Translations under genes and position numbers: made by a program | The notes under the pieces: model-generated | Told to the model about the DNA's origin: nothing | Database searches by the model: none | Seen by the model: only the letters and a program-made list of their open reading frames with translations | DNA from: an uncultured bacterium | Lineage (GTDB): Bacteria; Cyanobacteriota; Cyanobacteriia; Phormidesmidales; Phormidesmidaceae | Assembly: GCA_963923025.1 (NCBI GenBank) | Contig: CAWUKV010000003.1 | Location: forward strand, 8,776-72,775 | DNA: 64,000 bases | Reading direction: 5' to 3' | In this document: positions 12,861 through 54,477 of the stretch, one piece after another | Numbering within the stretch: the first letter of the stretch is position 1 | Layout of the letters: each line of letters starts with the position of its first letter

Positions 12861-12905
12861 AATCCTTATTTTTAATATGTTTGTGAAGCCATTTTTGTGG
12901 AGCCA

Positions 12906-13673: not shown

Positions 13674-14305
13674 GGGTAGAGGTGGTGTTCGTAGATGTAG
13701 TCTTGTACGGCAGGAGGAACCGCCTGAAGGTTAGCGGCAGCATGGCGGTAGGCGCTAGAGGAGATGTCGAACTGCTGCGGTGGGGTGGCGATCTCAACTG
13801 TTGCCCCATGCTGCCGTAGCTGATCGACCTCTCGCTCGTGGAGGGGATAACCCGGACGGGGGAAAACCAGGATTTTGGCCTGCTGAAAGATTGCGTCGGA
13901 CTGGTACCACTTGGGCATTTGCTGCACAAGGTCTGCCCCAATCACAAAGGTAAAGGTGGCCCGAGGCCAAATTTCCCTTGCCCGTTCTATGGTGACGGAC
14001 GTGAAACGATGGCTAAGGTCAGAGTGAAGCTGCACCGTGCCTGCTGAGGGCTGCTCCGGCAAGTTCTCAATCATCAGCTCCAGCATGCGCATGCGGTCTG
14101 CCAGCGGCGACTGCCCGTCTTTATAGGGATTATCTGACGCCCACACAGCCACATGATCAAATTGCTGACTGAGCCAGGAGAGAATACCGCGATGCCCCTT
14201 GTGGGGTGGGTCGGCGCTGGTGCCAAATAGGGCAATGTTTTGCATCAGAAAAATCTGGGATGATGGGGTGATCATAGAGGAACTACACCGTTGTGCTCGA
14301 CCCAA
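13628..14305 (-). CDS. nadD: nicotinate-nucleotide adenylyltransferase NadD
   Basis: N-terminus NIALFGTSADPPHKGHRGIL carries the (H/T)xGH nucleotidyltransferase motif. Confidence 0.85.
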   Translation of the reverse strand: MGRAQRCSSSMITPSSQIFLMQNIALFGTSADPPHKGHRGILSWLSQQFDHVAVWASDNPYKDGQSPLADRMRMLELMIENLPEQPSAGTVQLHSDLSHRFTSVTIERAREIWPRATFTFVIGADLVQQMPKWYQSDAIFQQAKILVFPRPGYPLHEREVDQLRQHGATVEIATPPQQFDISSSAYRHAAANLQAVPPAVQDYIYEHHLYPCLENSPRPKNAATR

Positions 14306-14316
14306 TGGTGTAATCG

Positions 14317-15684
14317 TCAGGATCGAGGGGTTCGCCGGGTCGTCTCGGTTAATCGCCGCAGTCCGTTAGACAGGGCCACCGTATAGTCTCCCGGCTCCTC
14401 CACGTTGCGTACGCTAGCCGGAAGCTGTTTTACCGACTGCGCAGTTCGCTGGGCAATCACCTCGACCTTCTCAGCAGGCTTAACTCGCTTGCCGTCGCTC
14501 ATGACCATCTCTAGCAAGGCTGTTTCATCGGTTTCGGTTGCTTCCACCGCTAACGCCAGCCGGTCTTTTACCGCCTGACCGTCCGCTATCCGACGAAAAA
14601 TCTGCTTGCGGCCAGGATAGGTGAGCTTGCCGCTCGATTCTTTCATGACGGGGATGCTATCGATTTCTACCAGCTTGTACACGCCGTTGACAGGACTACC
14701 CGTCACCAGTTTGGTACCAAAGCCGAAGCCGTCAATCACCGCGCCGTCGCGCTGGAGCTGCACCAGGGCACACTCGTCGAGATCGCCACTGGCAAAGATG
14801 GGGGTGTTGGGCTGGTGCGATCGCACCTGCCGAGACAGCACTGCCAAGTCCCCAGAATCTAACCGCACCCCGGTCAGCCCCGTTTCATTCTTGGCCAATC
14901 GCTGTGCTGCGGCCACTGTGTCGTAGGTGTCAATCAGCAATGGTGCACCCGGAAAGTAGCGGTGAAAGGCTTCGAAAGCGTCATCCTCGGTGCCCTCAAT
15001 CGCGGCGATCGCCATCACCAGTGCATGGGCCATGGTCCCCACCGGCTTCTGACCCAGCTTCAACGCGGCTAGCACATTGGAGGTGGCCGTCAGTCCCCCA
15101 GCCAGCGCGGCGCGGGCAGCCCAGAGCGACCCCTGGGGGCTAAAGGCCCGGCGGGTGCCAAACTCTAGCAGGGTGGCCTCGGGCCCAGCTACATCTCGCA
15201 GCCGCGCTGCCCGTGTGGCAATCAGCGTTTGGTAGTTGAGCGTATTGAGCAGGTAGGTTTCCACCACTTGGGCCTGCCACAGCGGTGCCTCCACCCGCAG
15301 CATGGGCTCATTGGCAAACACCGCCGTTCCTTCGGGTACCGCCCACACATCGCCCGTGAATCCCCCCTCCATCAGCAGTGACCAAAATCGGTCCGGCGCG
15401 TGGTCAAACAGGCCAGTCTGACGCAGGGCGTCGATTTGCGCTGAGCCAAATCGAAACTGCTCTAAATAGTCCAACGCCTGAGACAGCCCCATTGCAATCA
15501 GGTAGCCAAATCCTTCGGGTAGACGTCGGGCAAATAACTCGAAGCTAGCGGTGCGCTGGTCGAGTTCCTCACCGGCATAGCAGGCCGACATCGTGAGCTG
15601 GTACAGGTCCGTCAGCAGGCCATAATCCTCGGGCGAAATGCCCAGCGCGGGGTCAAGCAGTGACTGATGTAGCAGGCCGTTCAT
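14317..15684 (-). CDS. pncB: nicotinate phosphoribosyltransferase family protein (PncB-like)
   Basis: About 455 aa with NAPRTase family motifs (LYQLTM, GTMAHALVMA, LLIDTYD). The start is chosen at MNGLL (15684); the 6-frame ORF extends to 15720. Confidence 0.8.
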   Translation of the reverse strand: MNGLLHQSLLDPALGISPEDYGLLTDLYQLTMSACYAGEELDQRTASFELFARRLPEGFGYLIAMGLSQALDYLEQFRFGSAQIDALRQTGLFDHAPDRFWSLLMEGGFTGDVWAVPEGTAVFANEPMLRVEAPLWQAQVVETYLLNTLNYQTLIATRAARLRDVAGPEATLLEFGTRRAFSPQGSLWAARAALAGGLTATSNVLAALKLGQKPVGTMAHALVMAIAAIEGTEDDAFEAFHRYFPGAPLLIDTYDTVAAAQRLAKNETGLTGVRLDSGDLAVLSRQVRSHQPNTPIFASGDLDECALVQLQRDGAVIDGFGFGTKLVTGSPVNGVYKLVEIDSIPVMKESSGKLTYPGRKQIFRRIADGQAVKDRLALAVEATETDETALLEMVMSDGKRVKPAEKVEVIAQRTAQSVKQLPASVRNVEEPGDYTVALSNGLRRLTETTRRTPRS

Positions 15685-18501: not shown

Positions 18502-19182
18502 TCAATAGGGCGGGTCTGCAGGGCCAGTGTATCCACACATGCCGGTGCGGGGCGAGTTCACAATCAGCATGGGCTCACCGTAGTCGTCGTGAGGGTGTGC
18601 TTCGGCATGGCCGTCACATAGCGTCCCCTTAGAATCATCTTCGTAGATACATTCCAAACATAGGTGTGTAGCAGGCTGACCGCATTCGATGCAGCTTGAC
18701 TCGACAGGGTGGTTACGGGCCATCAGGTAGATTGGTTTGGCCGTTAGCGGTTTCCCTTCGCGGATGTCAACGAGCTTAACGAGCGTTTCTGAAGAGGTGC
18801 CAAAGTCGTAGACATGTTCCAGTGCCCCTGTTCGGGAGAAAACGGCATCAATTTTTCGAGTTTTACCAAAGCCGTTTTCGAACTGACCCACCATAAACTG
18901 GCTCATGTGACCGCAGCACTCCAGCCAGATCGCCCTTAGGTAATCGTCTAGGTGACCCAGCGTTTTGGTGCCACGCATTTCTAGGTTCAACCAGTAGTCC
19001 CCGCCGTAGGCATCTTGGATGCGCAGGTGATAGAGCGTTTCGGGCTTTGCTTTGCGGGATTCAGCCTTGGTGATTGCGGCCTGACGAGTTTTACAGCTTT
19101 TGAGATGTTTGGAGACACCGCCCTTAGACAGGGTTTTACCGCAGAAGATACAGTCGCCTTTAGTCTGCTGTTTTCGTGCCAT
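18502..19182 (-). CDS. hypothetical protein, N-terminal C4-type zinc-finger-like plus pRiA4b-ORF3-like domain (tentative)
   Basis: 226 aa ORF with CIFCG...C at the N-terminus, a C..CxxC..H cluster, and LYHLRIQDAYGG...HVYDFGTSSE resembling PF07929. Confidence 0.5.
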   Translation of the reverse strand: MARKQQTKGDCIFCGKTLSKGGVSKHLKSCKTRQAAITKAESRKAKPETLYHLRIQDAYGGDYWLNLEMRGTKTLGHLDDYLRAIWLECCGHMSQFMVGQFENGFGKTRKIDAVFSRTGALEHVYDFGTSSETLVKLVDIREGKPLTAKPIYLMARNHPVESSCIECGQPATHLCLECIYEDDSKGTLCDGHAEAHPHDDYGEPMLIVNSPRTGMCGYTGPADPPY

Positions 19183-19227
19183 AAGCCAAAAGATAACGCG
19201 CCGAAGATCAGCGGTGATGTTGCGTGC

Positions 19228-19770
19228 TTAAGCTCTAGTGTAAGAGACGATCTGCTCCCAAATATCTGGAAACTCAGCCTTGATTGCCTCAGCTTTAGCA
19301 ATTTCCATATCGCGATAGTCGAAGCCAGGGGCTACGGCTTCGCCCAGTAGGCCATATTCGCCAGCTTCTAAAACGGCAGCTTTCCAGTAACCGCCCGGGA
19401 CAAGCAGTTGGGGGACTTCACCCTTGGCTAAGTCAAGCCCCAGAACGTGTCGCTCTAGCTGACCCTCAAGGGTGATCAGCAGATAGGTGATGGGCGATCC
19501 GGCTTGGAAGTAGTGGAGGATGTCAGACTTGTTCTTGTGCAAGTGATCCACCGGTCGGTCATCGGTCAGTAGGTAATAAATGGAGGTGAGGAGGTTGCGA
19601 TCGCACCCCTCCCGCTCGGTTGGCATCGTTTGACTTGTACGGTAGGTTTCGGCAAAGTAGCCCCCCTCGACGTGCTCTACCAGGCCCAACTGCTGAATAA
19701 CTGTCTGTTTATCCACTGTGCTCGACGCTAAATTTTGACGCTGATCTTTGGCACCGATCATACCGACCAA
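19228..19770 (-). CDS. cupin-fold protein (DUF985-like), tentative
   Basis: 180 aa ORF with a beta-rich cupin-like core (HVEGGYFAE...HYFQAGSP). Confidence 0.5.
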   Translation of the reverse strand: MVGMIGAKDQRQNLASSTVDKQTVIQQLGLVEHVEGGYFAETYRTSQTMPTEREGCDRNLLTSIYYLLTDDRPVDHLHKNKSDILHYFQAGSPITYLLITLEGQLERHVLGLDLAKGEVPQLLVPGGYWKAAVLEAGEYGLLGEAVAPGFDYRDMEIAKAEAIKAEFPDIWEQIVSYTRA

Positions 19771-19826
19771 TCATACCGATTTGTGCTGGGAGCAGGCGGC
19801 TGCTATCCGTTAAAACACGCTATAGA

Positions 19827-20375
19827 ATGGGCAGTGACCGAAACAGGCAGGGTATGAGCGAGCAGGACGAGGCTAGGGTTGCCTATGCGGCGGGCCAAGC
19901 CGCCTTTGAACGGGGCAGCTATCGGCAAGCCGTGACGCAGTTTGAGCGAGCTAGGGGGCTCGCGGGTCAAGGAACGATCCTTGGGGGCGAAATCCAGCTA
20001 TGGCTCGCCAATGCCTATGCTGCCGTGGGTGAGGGCAATAACGCAGTCACCGCCTGTCAGGCCTTGGCCCAGCATCCTGACCCTGAAACCCGTAAGCAGG
20101 CCAAGCGGCTGGCCTACATTTTGCAGGCACCAGAACTGGCTACTAAGCCGGAGTGGATGAGCAAGATCCCGGACTTGGGCGGCATTGAGGGCGGCAACGA
20201 CTACAAGCTCACACAGTCTCGCTACGGCCAATCCAACAGCCGACCCATGCGCCGCCTTGCGCCGGAACCAGAGCCGTTGGATTTGAGCCAGGTAAATACA
20301 AAAGACAATCAGTTTGTGTGGGTGGCGCTGCTGGGCTGTGCACTAGTGCTAGGAGGATTGCTGTGGTTCAGTTAA
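19827..20375 (+). CDS. TPR-like protein with C-terminal transmembrane anchor
   Basis: 182 aa ORF with helical TPR-like repeats and a C-terminal hydrophobic helix (FVWVALLGCALVLGGLLWF). It overlaps the next gene by 13 nt. Confidence 0.55.
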   Translation: MGSDRNRQGMSEQDEARVAYAAGQAAFERGSYRQAVTQFERARGLAGQGTILGGEIQLWLANAYAAVGEGNNAVTACQALAQHPDPETRKQAKRLAYILQAPELATKPEWMSKIPDLGGIEGGNDYKLTQSRYGQSNSRPMRRLAPEPEPLDLSQVNTKDNQFVWVALLGCALVLGGLLWFS

Positions 20376-21067
20376 TACGGCATTGGGTCAAGCGTCTGGT
20401 TCTGATTGCGTTAGTGCTGTGCCTGACTGGGTGTGTGGACTACGACCTGGGCATTCAGTTCGATAGTCAGACCCACGGTACCCTCACGCAGACCCTGCAC
20501 CTGAGTGAGCGGGTAGCGCGGTTGAACCCCGACCGAGCCCAGCATTGGCTGCGTCAGTTTGAGCAGCGGGCCAAGCTCCAGGGCGGCAGGGTAAAACGGG
20601 TGGATGCCCGAACGGTGCAGGTTACGGTGCCGTTTAACAACGGGGCAGACCTCAGCGATAGTTACAATTCTCTGTTTGACACCGAAGAGAATCCAGCGCT
20701 GGGCCAGTTGCCCGGTTCGCCGCAGCTCACCTCGCACTTAAACCTGCATCAACAAAACCGAGTCTTGGCACTGCGTAATCAGCTCGATTTAGACATCGAC
20801 CTGACCTCGCTACCCGACCTCAACACGACCCGGCAAGATTGGCGGGTGCTCAATCTTGCCTTTCACCTCGTCACCCCTTGGGGTGTGGTCACCCAGTCTG
20901 GCGGCGTGGGGCGGGGCCGCGAGGTGATATGGCCGCTACAGCCAGGGCAGATCACGCACGTTCAGGCCGAGTTTTGGGTACCCAGCCCGATTGGCATTGG
21001 CGCAGGCGCGATCGCACTGCTGATGGGGCTGGGTTACCTGCTTAAATATGGCTTCGGGAGCCGCTGA
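20363..21067 (+). CDS. lipoprotein, DUF3153-like (tentative)
   Basis: GTG start with AGGAGG 7 nt upstream, a lipobox LCLTGC and a C-terminal transmembrane helix. Its stop overlaps the start of the downstream UPF0182 gene. Confidence 0.55.
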   Translation: MVQLIRHWVKRLVLIALVLCLTGCVDYDLGIQFDSQTHGTLTQTLHLSERVARLNPDRAQHWLRQFEQRAKLQGGRVKRVDARTVQVTVPFNNGADLSDSYNSLFDTEENPALGQLPGSPQLTSHLNLHQQNRVLALRNQLDLDIDLTSLPDLNTTRQDWRVLNLAFHLVTPWGVVTQSGGVGRGREVIWPLQPGQITHVQAEFWVPSPIGIGAGAIALLMGLGYLLKYGFGSR

Positions 21068-21069
21068 GA

Positions 21070-24000
21070 ATGGAAAAAGCGCTGATGCGGGTGAAGGTGA
21101 ACACTTGGCGATGGGTGGTTGCGATCGCGGCGATGCTGCTCAGCGTTGATATTGTCACCTACTTCATGGCCGAGGGGCTGTGGTTTGAGTCCGTGGACTA
21201 CCTGCAAGCCTTTTGGCTGCGGCTGCAAACCCAGTTGGGGCTAGGAGCACTGGGGCTGGCAGGCAGCTTTGGGTTCGCCCTGGTAAATCTGCTGCGGGCG
21301 CGGCGGCTCAGCGTTGACGACAACTGTATCTTGCCCAATGCCAACAATCGACGGACGGGCATTGGTTTGACGGGGCTGTTGCCACTGGCGGTGGGGCTGG
21401 CGGTGCTGATCATGGTGCTGCTGTTGTATCACGGTCAGCTGGCCGTTACCCGCTGGCATACTCAGGATGTTGGGGACGCACTACCGGCGCTGCCGCTGTG
21501 GCTCAACTTTCGGACGGGCTGGCAGGTAACGCAACAGGTGCTGGCGCTGCCGTGGTTAGGAGCAGTGCTGCTAGTGGGAGCGGTGGGTTTCCTGATATAC
21601 CCCATGCTGCTAGGGTATCTCAGCACCGTGGTCATCAGCCTCTGTTTTGGCCTGGTGCTGTCGTCCCAGTGGTCGAGAATTCTGCCCGCGCTCAACCCCA
21701 CCGCGTTTGGCATTGACGACCCACTATTCAACAACGACATTAGCTTTTACATTTTCCGACTGCCCATTCTCGAACTAGTGGAGTTTTGGATTTCCGGACT
21801 GTTGTTGTTTACCCTGGCGCTGGTAACGCTGGTATACCTGCTGGCGGGCAACAGCCTCAGTCAAGGGCGGTTTTTGGGCCTTGCTCCCCCGCAGCGGCGG
21901 CATCTGTTTGGCCTCTCCGGCGGGCTGTTGTTGACAACAGCTCTAGACAACTGGATTGCCCGCTACGAGCTGCTGTATTCGCCTCGGGGGGTAACCTTTG
22001 GAGCCAGCTACACCGATGTTGCCGTATCTCTGCCAGTGAATACGGGCTTGAGCATTCTGGCGCTGGTGCTGGCTGTCATTCTGCTATGGCGGACGCTATT
22101 TTGGGATACCACCTTTCGCGGGCTGGTGGAATGGCTGATGATGATTGGCCGCAACCAGTACGCCTACGTTCCCAAGGTACCGGTACGGCCTCGCAGTTCT
22201 CGACTGCTGATTAGCATTGTGCTGGGCTATTTGGCAGTGAGCGTGCTAGGCGCAACGGTAGTGCCGGGGATTGTGCAGCGGCTGGTAGTACAGCCGAACG
22301 AGCTCGAACGAGAAACGCCCTTCATTGAGAAAACAATTGCGTTTACCCGCCAAGCTTTTAACCTGACGGATGTTCAGGATGAGGTATTCATACCAGAAGA
22401 TTCTCTGACAGCGGCAGACTTGGAGCGCAACAACCTGACAGTCCGCAACATCCGCGTTTGGGACACCCGTCCCCTGCTAGAGAGTAACCGGCAGCTCCAG
22501 CAGATTCGCTCGTACTACGAGTTTGTAGATGCTGATGTCGACCGCTATACCCTGCGCAACGACGACGGCAGTACCGAGCGCCGTCAGGTAATTATTTCAG
22601 CGCGGGAGCTGAATACTGACCGATTAGATGAGATTGCCCAAACTTGGGTGAACCGACATTTGAGCTATACCCACGGCTACGGGTTCACCATGAGCCCAGT
22701 CAATACGGCGGGGGTCGGCGGCCTGCCGACCTACTTCATTAAAGACATTGCCCATGTCCCTAGCAACCCAGCGGTGGCCCGTAGCATTCCGGTAGGGGAG
22801 CCGCGCATCTACTTTGGCGAGCTGACAAACAACTACGTCATGACGTCGACTCGAGTAGAAGAGTTGGACTACCCCAGCGGCAGCGACAATGTGTACACCG
22901 TCTATGACGGGCAGGGCGGCATCAGCATTGGCGACCCCTTTCGGCGGTTGCTGTATGCCAAGCATCTAGGCGACTGGCAAATGCTGTTTACCGACAACTT
23001 TACGCCCGAGACACAGCTGTTGTTTCGGCGCAACATTCAAGACCGAGTGAAGCGGATTGCGCCGTTTCTGCAGTTTGACCAGGATCCCTACCTGGTAATT
23101 GCCAATGTACCCTCTGCCCCCGCCAACGAGCAAAACAAGCTGTATTGGATTGTGGATGCCTATACGACGAGCGATCGCTACCCCTATGCCGACCCAGAGC
23201 AAAACGAGTTCAACTACATCCGCAACTCGGTCAAGGCGGTGGTGAATGCGTACCAGGGGACGGTCGACTTTTACGTAGCCGATGCCGAAGACCCGGTCAT
23301 TCAAACTTGGGCCAGTCTATTTCCCAACATGTTTCAGCCGCTAGCAGACATGCCCACTGAGCTGGCGGCTCACATCCGCTACCCCCAAGACTATTCATTG
23401 GTGCAGTCTAATCAGCTGCTAACGTATCACATGACGGATCCGCGCGTGTTCTATAACCGTGAGGACCAGTGGCGGGCACCCAGCGAAATTTACGCCAACG
23501 AGCAGCAGGTAGTGGAACCCTACTATCTGATTATGAGGCTGCCGGATGCGGACGCTGAGGAGTTCATTCTCTTGCGTCCTTTCACGCCTCGTCAGCGTAA
23601 CAACCTGATTGCTTGGCTGGCGGCTCGTTCAGACGGCGAAAACTATGGGCGCATTTTGCTGTACCGCTTCCCCAAGCAGGAGCTCGTGTTTGGTCCAGAA
23701 CAGATTGAGGCTCGAATTAACCAGGATCCCGAGATTTCGCAGCGGATCTCCCTGTGGGACACCCAGGGCTCACGGGCGAATCAGGGCAATCTACTGGTAA
23801 TTCCCATTGAAGATTCTCTTTTGTACGTGGAGCCGTTATACCTAGAAGCAGAACAAAATCAGCTGCCAACCCTGGCACGAGTTATCGTGGCTTACCAAAA
23901 TAGAATTGCGATGGCAGAAACGCTGGATCAGTCGCTCAGTGCTATCTTTAACCAGCGCAAGTCGAGCAGCCCAGCGATTATTCGCGATCTTGAAAACAGC

Positions 24001-24084
24001 GAGGCTGATACGCCCGACCAAATCGACCAGCTGCTGCTACCGGATGAGCCAGCTCCGTCAAACACCATTGAGCCAAGCGAATAA
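21070..24084 (+). CDS. UPF0182 family membrane protein (paralog 1)
   Basis: 1004 aa ORF with an N-terminal multi-transmembrane region and a large extracytoplasmic domain carrying the conserved YIDAYTTSDRYPY and LLVIPIEDSLLYVEPLYL motifs. Confidence 0.85.
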   Translation: MEKALMRVKVNTWRWVVAIAAMLLSVDIVTYFMAEGLWFESVDYLQAFWLRLQTQLGLGALGLAGSFGFALVNLLRARRLSVDDNCILPNANNRRTGIGLTGLLPLAVGLAVLIMVLLLYHGQLAVTRWHTQDVGDALPALPLWLNFRTGWQVTQQVLALPWLGAVLLVGAVGFLIYPMLLGYLSTVVISLCFGLVLSSQWSRILPALNPTAFGIDDPLFNNDISFYIFRLPILELVEFWISGLLLFTLALVTLVYLLAGNSLSQGRFLGLAPPQRRHLFGLSGGLLLTTALDNWIARYELLYSPRGVTFGASYTDVAVSLPVNTGLSILALVLAVILLWRTLFWDTTFRGLVEWLMMIGRNQYAYVPKVPVRPRSSRLLISIVLGYLAVSVLGATVVPGIVQRLVVQPNELERETPFIEKTIAFTRQAFNLTDVQDEVFIPEDSLTAADLERNNLTVRNIRVWDTRPLLESNRQLQQIRSYYEFVDADVDRYTLRNDDGSTERRQVIISARELNTDRLDEIAQTWVNRHLSYTHGYGFTMSPVNTAGVGGLPTYFIKDIAHVPSNPAVARSIPVGEPRIYFGELTNNYVMTSTRVEELDYPSGSDNVYTVYDGQGGISIGDPFRRLLYAKHLGDWQMLFTDNFTPETQLLFRRNIQDRVKRIAPFLQFDQDPYLVIANVPSAPANEQNKLYWIVDAYTTSDRYPYADPEQNEFNYIRNSVKAVVNAYQGTVDFYVADAEDPVIQTWASLFPNMFQPLADMPTELAAHIRYPQDYSLVQSNQLLTYHMTDPRVFYNREDQWRAPSEIYANEQQVVEPYYLIMRLPDADAEEFILLRPFTPRQRNNLIAWLAARSDGENYGRILLYRFPKQELVFGPEQIEARINQDPEISQRISLWDTQGSRANQGNLLVIPIEDSLLYVEPLYLEAEQNQLPTLARVIVAYQNRIAMAETLDQSLSAIFNQRKSSSPAIIRDLENSEADTPDQIDQLLLPDEPAPSNTIEPSE

Positions 24085-24440
24085 AGGGGCTAGGGATGAG
24101 CCGTACGAATAGTTGTTTTACTGATATTCTGAAAAGCCATGAGCTAGAACAACTCCATATCAATATCAGTCCATCAGGTCTGAGCTCATAGGCTCCAAGC
24201 GGTGGCCTTATTGGTAGGCGCCGCGTTAGTGCAGCAGGGCGATCGCTACAGGGAAGACCCCAGAAGAAAACCCAACGACGAGACGACTCAGTCAAAAATT
24301 GCCGAATACAATGGCAGTATGGCGTACGCCCAAAACAACAGTCAGCTATGGACAGGCTACCAAACCAGCTCATCCCAAGCCGCACGCTCTGCTTGCCAAA
24401 CCACGATTGAGCTCGTCAAGGAGCCCATAAGGAGGAGGAG

Positions 24441-24599
24441 ATGCGTACCGCAAGACACGTAGGGTCACGTGCTGGCCCAAGACCGGTATCCAAAAACACA
24501 AATTTTCCTACACATTTATCTAAAGATGAAGCTATTGAACAAGCCCATTCGCGAGTTCCTAACCCCAAAAACCGCATCGCGTTTAATATTCCATGCTGA
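24441..24599 (+). CDS. small basic ORF (52 aa) translationally coupled to the downstream binding-protein gene
   Basis: AAGGAGGAGGAG lies immediately upstream of the ATG. Its stop overlaps the next start (ccATGcTGA). The translation is MRTARHVGSRAGPRPVSKNTNFPTHLSKDEAIEQAHSRVPNPKNRIAFNIPC. Confidence 0.4.
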   Translation: MRTARHVGSRAGPRPVSKNTNFPTHLSKDEAIEQAHSRVPNPKNRIAFNIPC

Positions 24600-25738
24600 A
24601 AGCGCTTTTATCCCCTCTCACCGCCCCCGACCTACGCCAACTGTCCACCGCGGCCCTGACCCTGGCCGTACTGCTGGGCACCGCCGCCTGCCAAACCCCA
24701 ACCGAGACAGCAGTAGATGCTGAGGCCCCAGCTGAAGCAGTAGCAGATGAGGCTGCCGAAGCACCGGCTGAGCTGACGTCTGTGAACTTCACGCTGTCCT
24801 GGCTATTACAGGGCGTAGACGGGCCGCTAACCCTGGCGATAGACCGGGGCTACTTTGCCGAGGCGGGGTTGGACGTTAGCTTTGAGCGCGGCTTCGGCTC
24901 ATCGGACACCGCTTCGAAGATTGCTGCAGGCCAGTACGACATGGGCTTTGGCGATGTTTATTCCATGATCGAATTCAATCAGCAAAACCCGGATGACAAG
25001 CTGATTGCTGTGGCAGTGACCACCAACCGCGCCCCCTTCGCTTTGCTGGCGTTTGAAGACAGCGGCATCGAATCATTGGACGACATGGCCGGGAAGAAAC
25101 TGGGTGCCCCCGTGGGCGACGCCCCTCGGCGGCTGTGGCCCGTCCTGGCAGAGGAAGCTGGCGTAGACGCCGATGCAGTGGAGTGGGTCAGTATGGAACC
25201 CAAGCTGCGTCAGAGCTTTTTGCTCCAGGGCAACGTCGATGCCATTAGCGGCTTCAGCTATTCCATGATTCCAGCCCTAGTCGAGGCCGGTAAAACCCTC
25301 GACGACATGAACATTTTCTACTATACCGAGAACGGGCTGGACTTCTACGGCAACGTCATTATGGTGAAAGAGTCTTTCCTAGCCGAGAATCCTGAAGTGG
25401 TAGAAGGCTTTTTGGCAGCTTACATCAAAGGCATGCAGGACGCCGTCGCCGACCCCGAAGCTGGCCTAGCCGCAGTTATGGCTGCGGGTGACGAACTGAT
25501 GGACGAGAACGCCGAGCGGCTGAGATTGCAGATTGCGCTCGATGGCCTACTGGTGAACGAAGAAGTGGAAGAGATTGGCTTTGGCGCTGCCGACCCTGAA
25601 CGACTAGAAGCCACCATTGCCCAAACGGTCGAGGGCTTTGACTTACCTGAAACACCGGCAGTGGAAGAGGTCTTTGATGATAGCTATCTACCTGCGTTAG
25701 AAGACCGGCTACCCGGCGAGGTGGGGACTTTAGAGTAA
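24593..25738 (+). CDS. ABC-type transporter periplasmic substrate-binding lipoprotein, NMT1/THI5 (SsuA/TauA/ThiY-like) family
   Basis: 381 aa ORF with signal peptide and lipobox LLGTAAC, and a periplasmic binding fold. No permease or ATPase gene lies adjacent. Confidence 0.75.
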   Translation: MLKALLSPLTAPDLRQLSTAALTLAVLLGTAACQTPTETAVDAEAPAEAVADEAAEAPAELTSVNFTLSWLLQGVDGPLTLAIDRGYFAEAGLDVSFERGFGSSDTASKIAAGQYDMGFGDVYSMIEFNQQNPDDKLIAVAVTTNRAPFALLAFEDSGIESLDDMAGKKLGAPVGDAPRRLWPVLAEEAGVDADAVEWVSMEPKLRQSFLLQGNVDAISGFSYSMIPALVEAGKTLDDMNIFYYTENGLDFYGNVIMVKESFLAENPEVVEGFLAAYIKGMQDAVADPEAGLAAVMAAGDELMDENAERLRLQIALDGLLVNEEVEEIGFGAADPERLEATIAQTVEGFDLPETPAVEEVFDDSYLPALEDRLPGEVGTLE

Positions 25739-27939: not shown

Positions 27940-29919
27940 CTATGCCTGAATGACGAAGTTGTCAGCGTCTAAGGTCGGTGCGCCTTCCAGCGTTGCATAC
28001 TGTCCGCCGCTGCCAAAACCTGCTTCCGCACCGTTGGCGTTGTAGTACAGCGTACCGGTATCGGCACCGTAAACAATCAGGGCATCGCTCAGTTCTGCCT
28101 CTTCGGCGCTGTTCACCACCGCAAACTCATCAGCAGATAGCGGCCCACCGACAGCACTGGTGAGCTGAGTAAAGACGGTCAGATCTAGCACAATGCTGTC
28201 AATGTCCTCAAAGTTCTGGATTTGATTGGTGCCGATATCTGCCGCATCAAAGGCAGCACCAGTGTCAAAGCCAAAGAAATCGGCCCCATCGCCGCCAATG
28301 AGAATATCGTTGCCACCACCACCAATCAGTAGGTCGGCCCCGCCGCCGCCAATGAGAATATCGTCGCCGGCACCGCCGATGAGAATGTCGTTACCCGCGC
28401 CACCGTCGGCCACGATTGGGGTTAATGTCGCGCTGGCATTGAGAAAATCATTACCCTCCCCACCAGAAAAAACTACAGACTGAACGTCGCTACCGGTCAG
28501 ATCCTCAACCGTCAGCGAATCATCACCACCCTGGCCGTTAATCTCAAACTGTTCGATCCCTTCGTTAGTGAGGGTAAACAGCCCCAGATTTAGGCGGTCA
28601 AAAATAGCCTGACCGTTCACCTGGCCTAAGTTGAACTCATCCCCAGGGCCGTCAGCGCCGTTGACCTGGGTAACGTCGAACCCGGCACCCCCATCAATGA
28701 AGTCGCTGCCGTCGCCGTTGTTCCAAATAAAGCGGTCGTCACCATCACCCAGGTTGGCAGTATCGCTGCCTCGCTGGCCCACAACAATGTCGTTGCCCGC
28801 CCCAGCAAAGAATGTGTCATCGGCGGAGCTGCCCAGCAGCAGGTCGTCACCATCACCCCCAAAAGCCTCAATCGTTGTCGTGCTTTCTCTGGCATCTAAG
28901 AGGTCATTTCCGTCACCGCCTGAGAAGACCACCTTTTTCACCGCACTGCCGGTCAGATCACCCACCGTCAGTGAATCGTCACCGCCGAGGCCATTGATTT
29001 CAAACCGCTCGACGTTCTCATTCGTCAGGGTAAACGGCCCCAGATTCAGGCGGTTGAAAATGGCCTGACCATTCTCCTGACTCAGGTCAAACTGGTCGCC
29101 AGGGCCGTCAGCCCCGTTGACCTGCGTGGTGTCGTAGCCCTTGCCACCGTCAATAAAGTCGCTGCCGTCACCGTTGTTCCAAACGAAACGATCGCGCCCT
29201 CCACCGAGGCGAGCAGTATCGCTGCCCCGCTGGCCCACAACAATATCGTCACCCGACCCGGCCACAAAAGTATCGTCCGCAGAGCCACCCAGCAGCAGAT
29301 CGTCACCGCTACCGCCCTTGGCTTTAATTTTAGTCGAACTCTCACGGGCATCTAACGTATCGTTGCCGTCGCCACCGGAGAAAACAACCTTCTTTACAGC
29401 GCTGTTGGACAAATCGCCAACCGTCAAAGAATCATCGCCACCCAGGCCATTGATTTCAAACCGTTCGATATTCTGGTTGGTGAGGGTAAACGGCCCCAGA
29501 TTCAGGCGGTTAAAGATGGCCTGTCCATGCGCTTCTCTCAGGTCGAACTGGTCGCCAGGGCCATCAGCACCGTTAACCTGCGTGGTGTCGTAGCCCTTGC
29601 CACCGTCAATAAAGTCGCTACCGTCACCGTTGTTCCAAACAAACCGATCGCGGCCTGCCCCCAGGAAGGCAACGTCGTTTCCTGTCTGACCAACAACGAC
29701 ATCGTTTCCACTACCGGCAAACATAACGTCGGTGCCAGCACCGCCTAAAATCGTATCGTCACCGTCTAAACCGAAGAAAATATCGTCCTGATCACCGCCT
29801 ATTAGCCCGTCATCGCCATTGCTGCCGATGAAAATGTCGCCCAGATCCTCAATCTCAGGCGCGTCATCGAAGATCGAACCGACAATCTGATTAACCAAAA
29901 ACGCTAGAAAAGAATTCAT
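27940..29919 (-). CDS. RTX-type calcium-binding protein with hemolysin-type GGxGxD repeats
   Basis: About 660 aa. The start is at MNSFLAF (29919) with AAGGAG upstream. It carries dozens of GGDGNDxL / GGxGxDxx nonapeptides and three roughly 150 aa internal repeats. Confidence 0.85.
   Translation of the reverse strand: MNSFLAFLVNQIVGSIFDDAPEIEDLGDIFIGSNGDDGLIGGDQDDIFFGLDGDDTILGGAGTDVMFAGSGNDVVVGQTGNDVAFLGAGRDRFVWNNGDGSDFIDGGKGYDTTQVNGADGPGDQFDLREAHGQAIFNRLNLGPFTLTNQNIERFEINGLGGDDSLTVGDLSNSAVKKVVFSGGDGNDTLDARESSTKIKAKGGSGDDLLLGGSADDTFVAGSGDDIVVGQRGSDTARLGGGRDRFVWNNGDGSDFIDGGKGYDTTQVNGADGPGDQFDLSQENGQAIFNRLNLGPFTLTNENVERFEINGLGGDDSLTVGDLTGSAVKKVVFSGGDGNDLLDARESTTTIEAFGGDGDDLLLGSSADDTFFAGAGNDIVVGQRGSDTANLGDGDDRFIWNNGDGSDFIDGGAGFDVTQVNGADGPGDEFNLGQVNGQAIFDRLNLGLFTLTNEGIEQFEINGQGGDDSLTVEDLTGSDVQSVVFSGGEGNDFLNASATLTPIVADGGAGNDILIGGAGDDILIGGGGADLLIGGGGNDILIGGDGADFFGFDTGAAFDAADIGTNQIQNFEDIDSIVLDLTVFTQLTSAVGGPLSADEFAVVNSAEEAELSDALIVYGADTGTLYYNANGAEAGFGSGGQYATLEGAPTLDADNFVIQA
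28290..29660. repeat. roughly 450 bp intragenic tandem repeat, about 3 copies, inside the RTX gene
   Basis: Near-identical DNA blocks occur at a 450 bp period. For example gtcgccagggccgtcagccccgttgacctgcgtggtgtcgtagcccttgccaccgtcaataaagtcgct is seen at about 29095 and again at about 29545. Confidence 0.7.
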
Positions 29920-30473
29920 TTCGGGGGTCTCCTTCAGTGTTAGATGAGAATGATGAGCTTTCTGAAAAAGAATTTGCACGCGAAGCCGTCCTCAACAGAT
30001 AAGCGAGGAATATGGCATTATCTTTAACAGAAGAGAGAGATTTTCTCTTTACTTTTTGTTATGGCAGCAGAACGACACAGGCATTAGATAGTTCGCTATT
30101 GCTACCAGATGACTCTCATAAAGGCTTATAACAAAGCCAACAGAGAAGAATTAAAAGCAAAGCCAGGGAATAACAGAATCGGGCATTCAGACATAGATAC
30201 GAGTCGTTGCCAACATTGGATGTGGCTTTTTCGAGATTTGACAGGTTAGTTGTGGCTGCTTGAGCTAGAGGACGTCAACCGAACCACTGTTTATAACTAG
30301 CGCCATTTACGTTAGGACACCGAGTACAGTGATCCTGCTTGTCATAAAGCGAAATGGCGTCACAGCCTTTTCCTGACGGATCTGACCGCTGCTGTATTTA
30401 CCTGTCTGAATACCAATACGACCGATGCGACCTATTGGATGAGTTTTTTTGATTTTTCCTTGAAGCCCTTGAC

Positions 30474-31265: not shown

Positions 31266-31309
31266 TCACAGGGGTATCTTCAGGGTCGGTTATGAGGGCA
31301 TTGCAACCA

Positions 31310-33870: not shown

Positions 33871-33970
33871 ATATGATTTGAGCTGTGATACGCTTTGGAG
33901 CAAGAACAGATTTTGTTGTCCTTTCAGAGCTTAATTGCACTGCAAAACTGTCCAAGCTTTGGGGTCCACT

Positions 33971-49192: not shown

Positions 49193-50485
49193 ATGCGTAT
49201 TCTCGTTTACTCCTACAACTATCACCCCGAACCCATCGGTATCGCGCCACTGATGACCGAGCTGGCAGAAGGGCTGGTTGCTAGGGGCCACGACGTTCGA
49301 GTGGTCACGGCAATGCCGAACTACCCCGAGCGCAAAATCTATCCCGATTATCGGGGCAAGCTGTTTGTCGAAGAAGAGCGCAATGGCGTCCACATTCAGC
49401 GCTGCTTCGTGGCAATTCGCCCTAATCCTGGGTTAGTCACCCGTGTCCTACTCGACGGCAGCTTCTCCTTCCTCAGCTTTTTCCAGGCCATGAAGGGCTG
49501 GCGGCCCGACATCATCCTCTCCACTAGTCCGTCACTTCCGGCTTCTGTGCCTGTAGCGGTAGTCCGAGCGCTGTTCTCTTGCCCGGTTGTCCTAAGCCTA
49601 CAAGACATCCTGCCCGAGGCTGCGGTACAGACGGGCCTAATTACCAATAAAATCGCCATTCGGGCCTTTGAGCTGTTAGAGAAGTTTGCTTATGCCAGCG
49701 TCGACCGGATTGCCGTTATCACCCCCTCCTTTGCCGACAACCTGATGAGCAAAGGCGTTCGTCCCGAAAAGATGAACTGTATCTCAAACTGGGTAGACGT
49801 CAACTTCATTCGTCCCCAATCAAAAACCGACAACGCCTTCCGCGAAAAGCACGGCCTTCAGGATAAGTTTGTTGTCCTCTACTCCGGCAATATTGCCCGT
49901 ACTCAGGGCGTGAGAACCATCGTTCGAGCCGCTGAACAGCTCAAGCATGAGCCCAACGTTGAGTTCGTGATTGTGGGTGAAGAAAGCCAGCTAGCAGACC
50001 TTAATGACCTGAAGGAAGAACTGGGCGTTACCAATGTCACGCTGCTGCCCTTTGCTCCCCGCAAGGACCTACCCGAAATGCTGGCGGCTGCCGATGTCTC
50101 ACTGATCATGCAAAAGAAGAACGTGGTTGGCTTCAACATGCCGTCCAAAACCATGGTGCTACTGGCCAGTGGCCGCCCGGTAATTGCCTCTGTCCCCCGC
50201 GATGGTGCAGCTGCTCGGGCCATCCGCGACAGCAAAGGCGGCATCGTCACCCCACCCGAAAACCCGTCCCTGCTGGCTAAGGCCATTCTCAAGCTCAGCC
50301 AAGATCCAGAACGGGCTGAGGCACTGGGCAAATACGGTCGCCAGTACGCCATCGAAAACTACTCCTTCGAGCAAGCTATCGATTCCTACGAAACACTGCT
50401 CAAAAACCTGGCAACTGCACCGGCTAGCACCCGCCTCGCCCCTGTTCCCCCCATGGGCGCAGTCGAAAAGGCCACTGGTCTTTAA
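49193..50485 (+). CDS. glycosyltransferase family 4 (GT-B, WbuB-like)
   Basis: MRILVYSYNYHPEPIGIAPL N-terminus and a C-terminal EX7E-type region. Confidence 0.85.
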   Translation: MRILVYSYNYHPEPIGIAPLMTELAEGLVARGHDVRVVTAMPNYPERKIYPDYRGKLFVEEERNGVHIQRCFVAIRPNPGLVTRVLLDGSFSFLSFFQAMKGWRPDIILSTSPSLPASVPVAVVRALFSCPVVLSLQDILPEAAVQTGLITNKIAIRAFELLEKFAYASVDRIAVITPSFADNLMSKGVRPEKMNCISNWVDVNFIRPQSKTDNAFREKHGLQDKFVVLYSGNIARTQGVRTIVRAAEQLKHEPNVEFVIVGEESQLADLNDLKEELGVTNVTLLPFAPRKDLPEMLAAADVSLIMQKKNVVGFNMPSKTMVLLASGRPVIASVPRDGAAARAIRDSKGGIVTPPENPSLLAKAILKLSQDPERAEALGKYGRQYAIENYSFEQAIDSYETLLKNLATAPASTRLAPVPPMGAVEKATGL

Positions 50486-50711: not shown

Positions 50712-53582
50712 CTACTCTGAGGCATTCAGTGCTTCGAGCAACTGACCCAATTCCGCCTGAGCTTCGCCGTAGGCTTCCCAATCACCGGCTTGCAACGCAT
50801 CTTGACTCGCCTGATAGGCCTCAAGCGCAGCCTCGATCTGCTGAGTGCGTCCGGTTGTCGTCGGGGCAGCGGGTGCTGATGTTGCAGGAGCAGCGGGCTC
50901 TGGCGCAGATTCTGCGGGTGCTGGCGTTGGCGCTGGCGCCTGCGGCTGCTCAGCAGTATCACCAAAAATCTGGTTCAAAGCTTGTTCTAGCGTAGGCTCC
51001 ATCACGATGGTGTCGTCATAGGAGACAATCACCCGGCGCAGCTCGGGAATGCCGCCGTTGCGGCTCCCCCCTTCTCCGGCATCTCTAGCTTGTAAATAGA
51101 TAGGCTCTACGTACAGCAGCGACTGATCGACCGGAATCACCAGCAGGTCACCCCGAAAGACCTCTGACCCTTCCTGATTCCATAACGTCAGCTGCTGAGA
51201 GATCTCTGGGTCTTGGTCAATGCGAGTATCAATCTGCCTGGGGCCGAAGATCAGCGCCTGCCGAGAGAATTCGTAAAGCACCAGCTCCCCGTAGTTCTCG
51301 CCATCGCAGCGGGCCGCCATCCACGCCACCATGTTGTTCTTACCCACCGGGGTATAGGGCAGAATCAACAAGAACTCTTCGATATCGCTGCCGGGCAGCT
51401 TCATAATCACGTAGTACGGCTCCACCACCTCAGCGGTTTCCTCTCGCGAAACCTGGGTAGGAAAGGCCCAAAGGTCTTCCTGGTTGTAGAACACCTCGGG
51501 ACGCTGAATGTGATAGGCCAGGTACATCTGCGCCTGCACCTTGAATAGATTCAGCGGATAGCGGAAGTGTGCCTTGAGCTGGTCCGATGCTTCGTCCATC
51601 GGGGTCATCAGGCCAGGGAAAATCCGTTGATAGGAGGCCAGAATAGGGTCTTCGGCATCGGCCACATAGAGCGTCACCGCACCGTCGTAGGCATCGACGA
51701 CCACCTTTACTGCATCGCGAATGTAATTCGTCCCAGAGGCGGCAATGCTACGGATAGCGCCATCGAACTGAGCGCCCCCACTTTGACTCCGCTGAAGCGG
51801 CTGCGAATAGGGGTAGCGGTTGCTGGTGGTGTAGGCATCAATAATCCACTGCATGCGCCCGTCAATCAGGGCCAGGTAAGGGTCGCTGTCGAGCGACAGA
51901 AAGGGGGCCAGTTGAGAGACGCGATCGCGAATCGAGCGATGGTACTGAATGCGCGAATCCGGTGTCACATAGTTAGACAGCAGCAGCGGCATTGCCCCTA
52001 GGTCGTAGGCATAGGCCAGCCGTCGAGGGCCGTTCAGCGATACCCCCCCAGTACCCGTATACTCGTAGCTCGCGTTCTCATCCCCCAGCGGATAGTCAAA
52101 CTCAGGCTGACGGGTACCGGTAACGATGTAGTCGGACGTTTCTTCGCCGTAATAGATGCGCGGCTGGTCGATGGCAATATCCACGCTAGTTTGGGGCGGC
52201 AGGTCTTTGATCCAAAGCTGGGGCAGGCCGTCGCGCGTCACCTGATTGACCGGGCTCATGGCCAGACCGTAGCCGTGGGTGTAAATTAAATGCTGGTTAA
52301 CCCAGGTTTGCGCCGTTTCGGGTAGGGCACGGGTGCGCAGCTCTCTGGGAGAAAGCATCACCTGGCGATAGTCCCCATCTACCGTGTAGCGGTCGATGTC
52401 CACATCGCGAAAGCGGTAGTAGGGTCGCAGGGTTTGCAGGCTGCTGTAGGTGGTTTGCAGGGGCCGATAGTCCCACAGACGAATGTTGTCGAGGGTCGCC
52501 CGGTTATCGTCCAGCGACGCCTGCGTCAGTCCCGCCTCAACAGCAAAATCGTCCTCCTGCACCGTGTCTAGCCCGTAGGCTGCACGGGTAAAGGCAATAC
52601 TGTGTTCGATATAGGGCGTTTCTTTTTCCAGTTCGGTGGGCTCCACCACAAACGACTGCTGAAACCAGGGATAGACGCCTGCCAGCACCAGTGCGGCCAC
52701 AGCATAGACCCCAATCGCCGCCAACGGCAACGAAAAGCCGCCCCGCCGCACCGAGACCAGAAACAGGACTCCCACCACAACAGTGATGAAGCCCAGAATG
52801 CCATAGGCCGCCATTCGCGCATTCACATCGGTGTAGCCCGCGCCGTACACCACCCCCGTAGGCGAGTACAGCAGCTCGTAGCGAGCCACCCAAAATCCTA
52901 GGGCCGCGACGACTGATAGCAAAGCCAGTAACGCACAGAGGTGGGTTTTGACCTCACCGGTAAGAAAGTACTTCCAGCCCCGCTCTGGACGAATCTCTCC
53001 CTTCAGGGCATAGATGCTGACGGCAAAAATCAACGACCACACCAGCAGCTCAATCGCAGCGTTGCGCAAGCTTTCGTACAGGGGCAGTTGAAAGACATAG
53101 AAGCTGACATCCTGACCATACAGCGGGTCGGCAATGTCAAAAGGGACCGGATTGAGAAACTTGAGCACCGCCTCCCACTGGGCCACACCGCTTACGGCAG
53201 CACCAATGGCCAGCATCGTTATCAGCGTGAGGCTAATGCCCTTGACCATGCCAGGCAGGTAGGGATCCCACTCTCGGTTTTGGCTGACGGCCATCAGCCG
53301 GTGTCGCGTCAGGTACTGAGCAATCCGGTAGTTGGCATAGAGTACGCCCCACCAAACCAGAAAACTCAGGATCGCGATCGCACCCTGCCACCGCAGCCGA
53401 GTCCAAAACACCTGTCCATAGCCCACCGCCCCAAACCACCAGGACTCAGTCAGGACGTGGACTAGCGTCTCTGAAAATAGAAAAACGAGCAGAACAACCG
53501 CAAGAATGATCAGCCAGCGGGATCGAAAAGCGGTTTTGGTCATGGACATGAATCGACAGGAGAAGCCAGCAAGGCGTAGCAA
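50712..53582 (-). CDS. UPF0182 family membrane protein (paralog 2)
   Basis: 956 aa ORF with an N-terminal multi-transmembrane region, the motifs IIDAYTTSNRYPY and LLVIPVDQSLLYVEPIYL, and a Pro/Ala-rich C-terminal tail. About 50 percent identical to paralog 1 over the conserved domain. Confidence 0.85.
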   Translation of the reverse strand: MLRLAGFSCRFMSMTKTAFRSRWLIILAVVLLVFLFSETLVHVLTESWWFGAVGYGQVFWTRLRWQGAIAILSFLVWWGVLYANYRIAQYLTRHRLMAVSQNREWDPYLPGMVKGISLTLITMLAIGAAVSGVAQWEAVLKFLNPVPFDIADPLYGQDVSFYVFQLPLYESLRNAAIELLVWSLIFAVSIYALKGEIRPERGWKYFLTGEVKTHLCALLALLSVVAALGFWVARYELLYSPTGVVYGAGYTDVNARMAAYGILGFITVVVGVLFLVSVRRGGFSLPLAAIGVYAVAALVLAGVYPWFQQSFVVEPTELEKETPYIEHSIAFTRAAYGLDTVQEDDFAVEAGLTQASLDDNRATLDNIRLWDYRPLQTTYSSLQTLRPYYRFRDVDIDRYTVDGDYRQVMLSPRELRTRALPETAQTWVNQHLIYTHGYGLAMSPVNQVTRDGLPQLWIKDLPPQTSVDIAIDQPRIYYGEETSDYIVTGTRQPEFDYPLGDENASYEYTGTGGVSLNGPRRLAYAYDLGAMPLLLSNYVTPDSRIQYHRSIRDRVSQLAPFLSLDSDPYLALIDGRMQWIIDAYTTSNRYPYSQPLQRSQSGGAQFDGAIRSIAASGTNYIRDAVKVVVDAYDGAVTLYVADAEDPILASYQRIFPGLMTPMDEASDQLKAHFRYPLNLFKVQAQMYLAYHIQRPEVFYNQEDLWAFPTQVSREETAEVVEPYYVIMKLPGSDIEEFLLILPYTPVGKNNMVAWMAARCDGENYGELVLYEFSRQALIFGPRQIDTRIDQDPEISQQLTLWNQEGSEVFRGDLLVIPVDQSLLYVEPIYLQARDAGEGGSRNGGIPELRRVIVSYDDTIVMEPTLEQALNQIFGDTAEQPQAPAPTPAPAESAPEPAAPATSAPAAPTTTGRTQQIEAALEAYQASQDALQAGDWEAYGEAQAELGQLLEALNASE

Positions 53583-53679: not shown

Positions 53680-54477
53680 TTGATATCTCTATTAGGAGAA
53701 AGTCCAACGCGGTCAATGCTTCAGTCGTTCCAGGTCGATGCACTGCAGGTCGAGGTCTACGCCACCAAGGCCGAACTCGATGCAGCGGCATCAGACCATG
53801 TGATTCACACCCTCAAAGCCGCAACACTGCAAAGCCTTGCGGCGGTTGTCTTTGCCACGGGCAGTACACCGCTAGGGCTGCTACAGCACCTGCGGGACCG
53901 GCAGGCCGAAGTGGACTGGACTCAAGTTGTTGGTCTGCATTTAGATGAGTACTTGGGCATCAGCCCTACCCACCCGGCCAGCTTCCAACACTACCTGCGA
54001 GAACAGGTCGGGGCAGTACTGCCGTTTCATGCCTTCTATTACTTAAACAGCCAAGCCCTAGAACCGATTACCGAGTGCGATCGCTACACCAACCTCATCA
54101 AAACTCATGCCCCCGACCTGTGCATACTCGGCATCGGCAACAACGGCCACCTAGCCTTCAACGATCCTGCTGTGGCAAATCCCTACGACTCCCGCTGGGT
54201 CAAGCTCGTCCAGCTCGACGAAAAAAACCGACAGCAGCAGTTCCAGTCCGGCCATTTCTCGACCCTTGAACAGGTCCCACAGTATGCCTACACGCTGACG
54301 ATGCCCGCCATTTTTTCCACTGGGAAACGACTCTGCCTAGCCAAAGGCGAACGCAAAGCCGCCATCGTCCAGCAACTGCTACAGGGCTCTGTCAATACCG
54401 CCTGTCCCGCCAGCTTCCTGCGACACCAGCCCGGCACGCGCCTATTCCTCGATACCGCTGCCGCATCCGAGCTGTAA
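53680..54477 (+). CDS. glucosamine-6-phosphate deaminase / 6-phosphogluconolactonase family protein
   Basis: NagB/Pgl fold motifs (VFATGSTP, LGIGNNGHLAFNDP). Confidence 0.75.
   Translation: MISLLGESPTRSMLQSFQVDALQVEVYATKAELDAAASDHVIHTLKAATLQSLAAVVFATGSTPLGLLQHLRDRQAEVDWTQVVGLHLDEYLGISPTHPASFQHYLREQVGAVLPFHAFYYLNSQALEPITECDRYTNLIKTHAPDLCILGIGNNGHLAFNDPAVANPYDSRWVKLVQLDEKNRQQQFQSGHFSTLEQVPQYAYTLTMPAIFSTGKRLCLAKGERKAAIVQQLLQGSVNTACPASFLRHQPGTRLFLDTAAASEL

Follow-up and report, generated by a model that had tools for sequence, protein, structure and literature searches.

A UPF0182 gene probably joined by a young, clade-restricted operon fusion to a TPR/DUF3153 bicistron in a Leptolyngbya-like cyanobacterium

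Introduction

Do a tetratricopeptide repeat (TPR) gene, a DUF3153 lipoprotein gene and a UPF0182 gene, packed one behind the other on a cyanobacterial scaffold, encode a conserved three-protein system, or has the third gene only lately come to lie behind the other two? These genes occupy the forward strand of a 64,000-nucleotide stretch of DNA (contig CAWUKV010000003.1, positions 8,776 to 72,775; hereafter the window), which comes from a metagenome scaffold (ENA ERZ23492192, DRIS22-1 scaffold_42; NCBI has a copy of 72.8 kb) and whose proteins are nearest to those of marine Leptolyngbyaceae-like metagenome-assembled genomes (MAGs) such as 'Cyanobacteria bacterium J06632_22'. A first-pass annotation had taken the packing to imply a stoichiometric envelope complex, and had suggested that the operon context could help to assign a function to UPF0182. 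The evidence presented here points instead, with a probability of roughly 0.8, to a genuine, young and clade-restricted operon fusion, in which a UPF0182 gene has been placed behind a TPR/DUF3153 pair that is itself conserved across species.

The gene identities given by the first-pass annotation are supported by Pfam, weakly so for the TPR protein. The TPR open reading frame (ORF) runs from 19827 to 20375 on the forward strand; the ATG at 19854 is the better supported start, from the database gene call and orthologues, and gives a protein of 173 residues (19854..20375). The DUF3153 ORF is longest from 20318, and the product of 234 residues encoded at 20363..21067 (+) is identical to the database gene call (MVQLIRHW...LTGC). 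UPF0182 paralogue A, of 1004 residues, follows at 21070..24084 (+). A second UPF0182 gene, paralogue B, stands 27 kb away on the minus strand, alone, full length and intact, as had been reported; its ORF (50712-53582, −) reaches a TTG at 53582, while the likely start is the ATG at 53549, giving a monocistronic gene for a 945-residue protein (50712..53549). The description of UPF0182 as having no assigned function is somewhat dated, a 2025/26 preprint having tied the family to FtsH/YccA quality control.

Neighbourhood conservation

DUF3153 loci were gathered by an alignment-based scan of one genome per species (GTDB), which yielded 205 confirmed loci. The best 80 of these were kept with 8-kb flanks and searched by tblastn for UPF0182 of either type. 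No UPF0182 gene was found in any of the 80, all from other species, of which 76 were informative in having at least 1 kb of sequence 3' of DUF3153. The reciprocal search, by profile hidden Markov model and tblastn, covered 58 UPF0182 loci for which 800 nt or more of upstream sequence is available (13 A-type, 2 B-type and 43 from other phyla), and none had a DUF3153 or TPR gene nearby. The window, included as a positive control, was detected by the adjacency scan. A metagenome scan supplied 68 further UPF0182 loci, and clustering of the neighbours in 64 metagenome loci revealed lineage-specific synteny only and no conserved partner of UPF0182.

The synteny can be followed up to the point at which it stops. 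In the two closest relatives, whose DUF3153 proteins are 83% and 67% identical to that of the window (L001 and L002; the L numbers denote retrieved loci and contigs), the order cupin (−), TPR, DUF3153 is kept as far as the end of DUF3153, beyond which come a 0.9-kb spacer and unrelated genes. The cupin gene (Cupin_5, or DUF985, by Pfam; 19228..19716, −) is the divergent left neighbour of the TPR gene and marks the left, syntenic flank of the locus. The A orthologues of the next-closest relatives, at 87, 85 and 72% amino-acid identity, are preceded by PsbP-like and Maf genes or by small ORFs, and yet other genes lie upstream of A in Leptothoe kymatousa and Leptolyngbya iicbica. No TPR-DUF3153-UPF0182 operon is conserved across independent lineages, and only strains of at least 87% nucleotide identity share the adjacency. 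The first-pass annotation had named a lack of conserved co-occurrence as grounds for refuting its reading, and at every phylogenetic depth that matters such a lack is what the surveys show. As it is limited to a few very close relatives, the adjacency says little about UPF0182 function.

The zero counts in both surveys, next-closest relatives included, are the main obstacle to the proposed complex of TPR protein, lipoprotein and UPF0182, whose operon would have named the partners of UPF0182. UPF0182 is moreover widespread in phyla in which no DUF3153 adjoins it, and both paralogue B and most A orthologues stand alone among variable neighbours. The complex would account for the tight packing of the genes (a 13-nt overlap and a 2-nt spacer) and for the retention of the fusion in a lineage 13% diverged in nucleotide sequence; all three products are also membrane proteins, and a weak parallel exists in Mycobacterium smegmatis, where MSMEG_4237 lies two locus tags from MSMEG_4239, the orthologue of LppM, whose fold DUF3153 shares. 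On balance such a complex appears unlikely. The locus provides a weak operon handle on the widespread UPF0182 family, for which a functional lead (FtsH/YccA) already exists from mycobacteria.

Several relatives have UPF0182-A immediately 3' of a PsbP-like gene and maf (L081 3494-4651; L082 4773-5983; L145 3449-4848; L088 229-822). This partial synteny might hint at a connection with the thylakoid or photosystem II. Other A-type loci (L085-L091, L157, L158) lack the arrangement, and no PsbP-like or Maf gene was found elsewhere in the window.

The TPR/DUF3153 pair is the part of the locus that is conserved. Its coupling region (20351..20375, +) consists, as read from the sequence, of a Shine-Dalgarno (SD)-like AGGAGG at 20351-56, the GTG start of DUF3153 at 20363 and the TAA stop of the TPR gene at 20373-75, the two genes overlapping by 13 nt; the first-pass annotation had described this overlap correctly. 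Of 78 informative loci, about 30 have a TPR gene directly 5' of DUF3153, and these are confined to Leptolyngbya-like or Phormidesmis-like lineages. Among 31 TPR-linked species loci, 15 have a start codon exactly at −13 from the TPR stop, as in the window, and in 20 the TPR stop lies no more than 75 nt from the lipobox cysteine codon. Adjacency and overlap of stop and start are thus both kept across species, which argues that the coupled bicistron is the ancestral unit.

Downstream of DUF3153, about 35 cyanobacterial loci carry a gene for a small membrane protein with a LapA domain, followed by ScpA and an NTP-transferase (for example L012 8753-9118, L064 8889-9263, L031 9451-10311 and L014 10891-12057, within the range L003-L078). 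The LapA_dom (PF06305) matches score 40-56 bits against a cutoff of 28, and the carriers include Trichodesmium erythraeum IMS101 and the next-closest relatives L003-L007. This block was found neither within the 64-kb window nor at DUF3153 in L001 and L002. In the clade of the window, UPF0182-A holds the slot usually taken by the LapA-domain gene.

The upstream side of DUF3153 varies as well. No TPR gene is present next to DUF3153 in the loci from Oscillatoriales (Lyngbya, Laspinema, Limnoraphis and others), where a gene for a PmbA/TldD-type metallopeptidase often takes its place, some 0.1-1.5 kb upstream (L019, L021, L032-L034, L038, L041, L044, L046, L047, L049, L059, L067 and L068).

The two UPF0182 paralogues

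Both paralogues match PF03699 (UPF0182) over their full length, A with E=1.6e-289 (962.8 bits) and B with E=7.6e-294 (977.1 bits), against a cutoff of 27. A, delimited by Pfam, NCBIfam and blastn breakpoints, is the canonical cyanobacterial form and scores 1367 bits on the cyanobacterial equivalog model NF002707/PRK02509, well over the cutoff of 949. B, placed by Pfam, tree and synteny, reaches 868 bits on the same model and falls below the cutoffs of all three NCBIfam UPF0182 models, scoring slightly higher on PRK00068, a non-cyanobacterial subfamily model. The two proteins are 43% identical over 813 residues, rather than about 50% as first estimated.

Topology was assessed from a Kyte-Doolittle (KD) hydropathy scan and AlphaFold2 (AF2) models. 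A has seven to eight hydrophobic segments within residues 1-400 and B about seven within residues 1-292, and in UPF0182 a soluble domain of about 600 residues comes after the first 400 or so. This agrees with the architecture already proposed, of about seven transmembrane (TM) helices and a large domain. The AF2 model of A is of moderate quality (predicted local distance difference test, pLDDT, 67.6) and has long helices that extend to residue 429 and give way to a mixed alpha/beta domain; no sequence relatives of UPF0182 were found in the PDB. Relative to B, A has about 65 extra residues (about 85-180) that add hydrophobic segments to the N-terminal membrane region, and B aligns to A only from A residue 179 onward. 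B carries an Ala/Pro-rich C-terminal tail with a weak match to DUF3597.

In a distance tree of 53 UPF0182 sequences with 200 bootstraps, A and B fall into separate clades of cyanobacterial sequences, each recovered in 200/200 replicates. Because the distance between A and B (1.08) is about as large as the distances to other phyla (1.14-1.22), the split between them must be ancient. The ratio of nonsynonymous to synonymous substitution (dN/dS), computed against the closest orthologues with dS saturated, is about 0.05-0.06 for A, 0.05 for B, 0.05-0.07 for DUF3153 and 0.07 for the TPR gene (against L001). Values of this order indicate that none of the four is a pseudogene, and the decay of one paralogue, which had been raised as a possibility, is not observed. 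At least 16 uniquely named organisms occur in the match lists of both A and B, among them Leptothoe kymatousa, Leptolyngbya sp. Heron Island J, L. iicbica, Almyronema epifaneia and J06632_22. Two copies, taken as unusual in the first-pass annotation on the view that most genomes carry one, are therefore the norm in this clade.

The surroundings of B are also conserved. A Glucosamine_iso-family gene (53680..54477, +), divergent from B, is the neighbour on one side in L155 and L156 too, and a glycosyltransferase gene (49193..50485, +), convergent with B, is the neighbour on the other in L155 and lies one gene further in L156; both were called as ORFs. The genes flanking B are the same in J06632_22 and nearly so in Leptothoe kymatousa, relatives at 86% and 64% identity, and the orthologues of B at 84-86% identity attest to its conservation. 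The retention of this synteny suggests that B is at the ancestral locus and that A is the copy that moved.

These results bear on the idea that one of the copies is decaying or was recently acquired by horizontal transfer, an idea prompted by the failure of B to reach any NCBIfam cutoff, by its slightly better score on PRK00068 and by the low support (108/200) for grouping A and B together against other phyla. Both copies are full length with dN/dS of about 0.05 against orthologues at 84-87% identity, each belongs to a fully supported cyanobacterial clade, they occur together in 16 named relatives, and B keeps its flanks; decay or recent transfer is thus very improbable.

The DUF3153-UPF0182-A junction

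At the junction (21056..21072, +), an SD-like GGGAG at 21056-60, within the 3' end of DUF3153 and 9 nt upstream of the UPF0182-A ATG, is followed by the DUF3153 stop TGA (21065-67), a 2-nt spacer (GA) and the ATG itself (21070-72). The stop and start codons had been described as overlapping, which they do not.

The DUF3153 cluster at 90% identity has two further members, both on short contigs, and three contigs were retrieved in all. They come from Logan SRR22824316 (L159; 86.6% nucleotide identity to the window), ENA ERZ21854028 (L160; 97.2%) and ENA ERZ23491790, another DRIS22-1 sample (L161; 99.2%). In each, the TPR gene, DUF3153, the 2-nt gap and the N-terminus of UPF0182-A follow one another, and the junction (TGAgaATG) is identical, with the common string agccgcTGAgaATGg. 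The window is a metagenome scaffold, and no other species sampled has the junction. Its recurrence in three independent contigs, which stem from different samples and assemblers and of which one is as distant as 86.6% identity, with both ORFs intact up to the join, leaves next to no room for a chimeric assembly.

Comparison with relatives by blastn locates the break. Homology covers only 19832-21057 (TPR and DUF3153) and 21064-24053 (UPF0182-A alone), so that the break falls between 21057 and 21064. The sequence downstream of A in relatives has no homologue in the window. As homology is confined to A itself, A is present here on its own, and the intergenic region usually found 5' of it has been lost. 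The fusion is shared by the 87% lineage and absent from the J06632_22 lineage (76-80% nucleotide identity), and therefore arose after the split from the latter and before that of the former. No flanking direct or inverted repeats and no mobile element were found around UPF0182-A.

Transposase genes (HTH_Tnp_1 and rve; IS66 family) are present at about 32629-34084 of the window (L084 21560-23015), some 8.5 kb downstream of UPF0182-A. In a consensus-pattern scan of 19000-25000, promoter- and terminator-like sites were no more frequent than in shuffles, and both gene junctions were free of them. A 14-nt motif, GGGCTAGGATAGCC, is shared by the two nearest relatives that lack the fusion; it lies 35-45 nt upstream of the UPF0182-A start (L081 5960-5973; L154 1503-1516) and may have a promoter or regulatory function. 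A sequence resembling GGGCTAGGATAGCC after the stop codon in the window was considered as a trace of a circular or tandem-duplication intermediate and was rejected as not significant, since 12/300 and 35/300 shuffles reach its score.

In the fusion that is favoured here, the ancestral unit would be a coupled bicistron for a small TPR protein, cytoplasmic and tail-anchored, and a DUF3153 protein of the periplasm (or lumen). The clade of the window would have lost the downstream block of LapA_dom, ScpA and NTP-transferase genes, and UPF0182-A would have been placed as a single gene, its own 5' region gone, 2 nt behind the DUF3153 stop. Having arrived without that region, A would be transcribed from the TPR/DUF3153 promoter, and its translation may proceed by termination-reinitiation. 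B would be the ancient, independently conserved second copy that stayed at the ancestral locus. As a member of its family, UPF0182 would act as an oligomeric scaffold in the inner membrane, with a large dome outside the cytoplasm, working with FtsH and YccA.

Several points weigh against this account. The sample of A-type neighbourhoods is modest, at 13 loci that are mainly Leptolyngbya-like. Co-transcription and translational coupling of A with DUF3153 are suggested by their spacing. The role with FtsH and YccA was proposed for Actinobacteria and would extend to cyanobacteria by family membership. A search of the PDB for structural analogues of UPF0182-A, made with a model of only moderate quality, found none, the best match having E=0.097. 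Finally, the fusion persists across about 13% nucleotide divergence; it must for that reason be at least tolerated, and could be advantageous.

The DUF3153 lipoprotein and the TPR protein

DUF3153 membership of the lipoprotein is well supported (PF11353: E=1.8e-33, 116.2 bits, cutoff 21.4). The family appears to be cyanobacterial: among 133 homologues and 205 genome loci, all that are named belong to cyanobacteria, bar one MAG labelled Candidatus Obscuribacterales. A lipobox, LTGC, occupies residues 21-24, with Cys24 as the lipobox cysteine, and a C-terminal TM helix spans residues 209-230 or thereabouts. The protein would thus be anchored in the membrane at both ends. The lipoprotein signal, and the C-terminal anchor of the TPR protein, had been correctly recognized in the first-pass annotation, as the KD scan and the models confirm.

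The AF2 model of DUF3153, built from 25 sequences, has a pLDDT of 86 and a beta-rich domain with one outstanding structural neighbour, the Mycobacterium tuberculosis lipoprotein LppM (2nc8; Foldseek E=5.6e-8). The domain has the pseudo beta-barrel closed by a helix that is typical of the LppM fold, and the combination of a lipobox signal peptide with a C-terminal TM helix likewise corresponds to the dual anchoring of LppM. At the level of sequence the relationship is much fainter. DUF3153 scores 16.1 bits (E=0.014) on the LppM family model PF21946, under the cutoff of 27; two of the 25 family members give a weak match to it; a DUF3153 profile search does not recover LppM or 2nc8; and no sequence relative of DUF3153 is present in the PDB. 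Given the sub-threshold score and the lack of a profile match, DUF3153 is called an LppM-fold protein here and is kept apart from the LppM family of Pfam. The literature searched makes no mention of DUF3153.

The TPR protein was identified from its ORF, the database gene call, the KD scan and weak Pfam matches, those to TPR_14 and TPR_16 lying below cutoff; against the PDB it gave generic consensus-TPR matches only. It has no signal peptide and a single TM helix, at residues 154-172 of the C-terminus, from which it would be tail-anchored with the TPR domain in the cytoplasm. The TPR and LppM-fold domains could contact each other only via their C-terminal TM helices. DUF3153 is now characterized as a cyanobacterial lipoprotein with the LppM fold and an anchor at each end, paired with a tail-anchored TPR protein and usually encoded beside a LapA-domain gene.

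Other features of the window

A compact cluster for NAD salvage and its regulation, comprising NAD synthase, an NrtR-like NUDIX regulator, a nucleotidyltransferase and NAPRTase, lies at about 11088-15684 (−; L084 19-4615). At 27940-29979 (−) is encoded a 679-residue protein that consists of HemolysinCabind (RTX-type) repeats and contains three nearly identical internal modules, each about 150 residues long. An ECF (extracytoplasmic function) sigma factor and the adjoining RskA-type anti-sigma factor are encoded at about 30471-31891 (−; L084 19402-20822). Rfam and tRNA scans over the window returned no hits.

Comparison with known systems

The loci in which DUF3153 is clustered with a LapA-domain protein, some 35 in cyanobacteria, with an anchored cytoplasmic TPR protein upstream, recall the lapAB (yciS/yciM) genes of Escherichia coli, a likeness that is by analogy. 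E. coli LapB is an FtsH adaptor, with an N-terminal anchor, about nine TPRs and a rubredoxin-like domain. The TPR protein of the window, in contrast, has 173 residues and a C-terminal anchor, without a rubredoxin domain, and matches no LapB family in Pfam or NCBIfam; it does not qualify as a LapB/YciM-type adaptor. Unlike lapAB, the window contains no LapA-domain gene.

A closer comparison can be drawn with M. tuberculosis LppM (Rv2171; PDB 2nc8; PF21946). The structure of LppM was reported as a new fold; the protein carries a lipobox and signal peptide, has a TM segment at its C-terminus and binds phosphatidylinositol mannosides (PIMs) (PMC6151718, PMC5217060). DUF3153 has the same architecture at a sequence identity of only 13-18%. 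The two differ in that DUF3153 is coupled to a TPR gene, a coupling unreported for LppM, and since PIMs are absent from cyanobacteria any lipid ligand of DUF3153 would be a different one.

The role proposed for UPF0182 with FtsH and YccA comes from its actinobacterial members, from CRISPR interference (CRISPRi) and transposon sequencing (TnSeq) data together with AlphaFold3 (AF3) models. In M. smegmatis, the phenotypes of MSMEG_1959 knock-down correlate with those of MSMEG_4237 (r=0.87), ftsH (0.80) and yccA (0.67), similar correlations are seen for UPF0182 in Corynebacterium glutamicum and Bifidobacterium breve, and AF3 predicts a tetrameric UPF0182 dome that binds YccA and MSMEG_4237 (bioRxiv 10.1101/2025.11.14.688347). 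Selection with ethidium bromide gave rise to parallel mutations in MSMEG_1959 or MSMEG_4237 (10.64898/2026.01.04.697598). Paralogues A and B match end to end the PF03699 model, whose family includes M. smegmatis MSMEG_1959, M. tuberculosis Rv3193c and C. glutamicum cgp_0896, and the common architecture comprises about seven TM helices and a large extracytoplasmic domain. By this family membership, the most likely function of A and B would be in FtsH-linked membrane-protein quality control.

The mycobacterial genes also offer a possible link between UPF0182 and the LppM fold. Rv2171 (LppM) was verified to be MSMEG_4239. MSMEG_4237, whose phenotypes correlate most strongly with those of UPF0182, is therefore two locus tags away from the gene for LppM in mycobacteria, so that in two phyla a gene for an LppM-fold lipoprotein is found near something connected with UPF0182. 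MSMEG_4237 is presumably Rv2169c, going by the order of locus tags. The notion that Rv2169c/MSMEG_4237 is a LapA-domain protein, which would have made this cluster homologous to that of DUF3153 and LapA_dom, was rejected, as Rv2169c is a DUF3040 protein. The nearness of MSMEG_4237 to MSMEG_4239, the TPR and LapA-domain flanks that recall LapAB, and the occupation of the LapA-domain slot by UPF0182-A in this clade are suggestive by analogy of a network for envelope homeostasis in which LppM-fold lipoproteins (DUF3153 and LppM) and small membrane partners would act with UPF0182 and FtsH. Such a network is a long shot at present. If it were true, DUF3153 and the TPR protein would be cyanobacterial accessory factors of the UPF0182-FtsH quality-control machine, and this could matter for the turnover of thylakoid and photosystem II proteins.

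M. smegmatis has one UPF0182 protein, whereas the organism of the window has two, 43% identical to each other. No linkage of either to ftsH or yccA was seen, though no test was aimed at it. A clade that carries two such anciently diverged paralogues is well suited to tests of sub-functionalisation, for example between the plasma membrane and the thylakoid.

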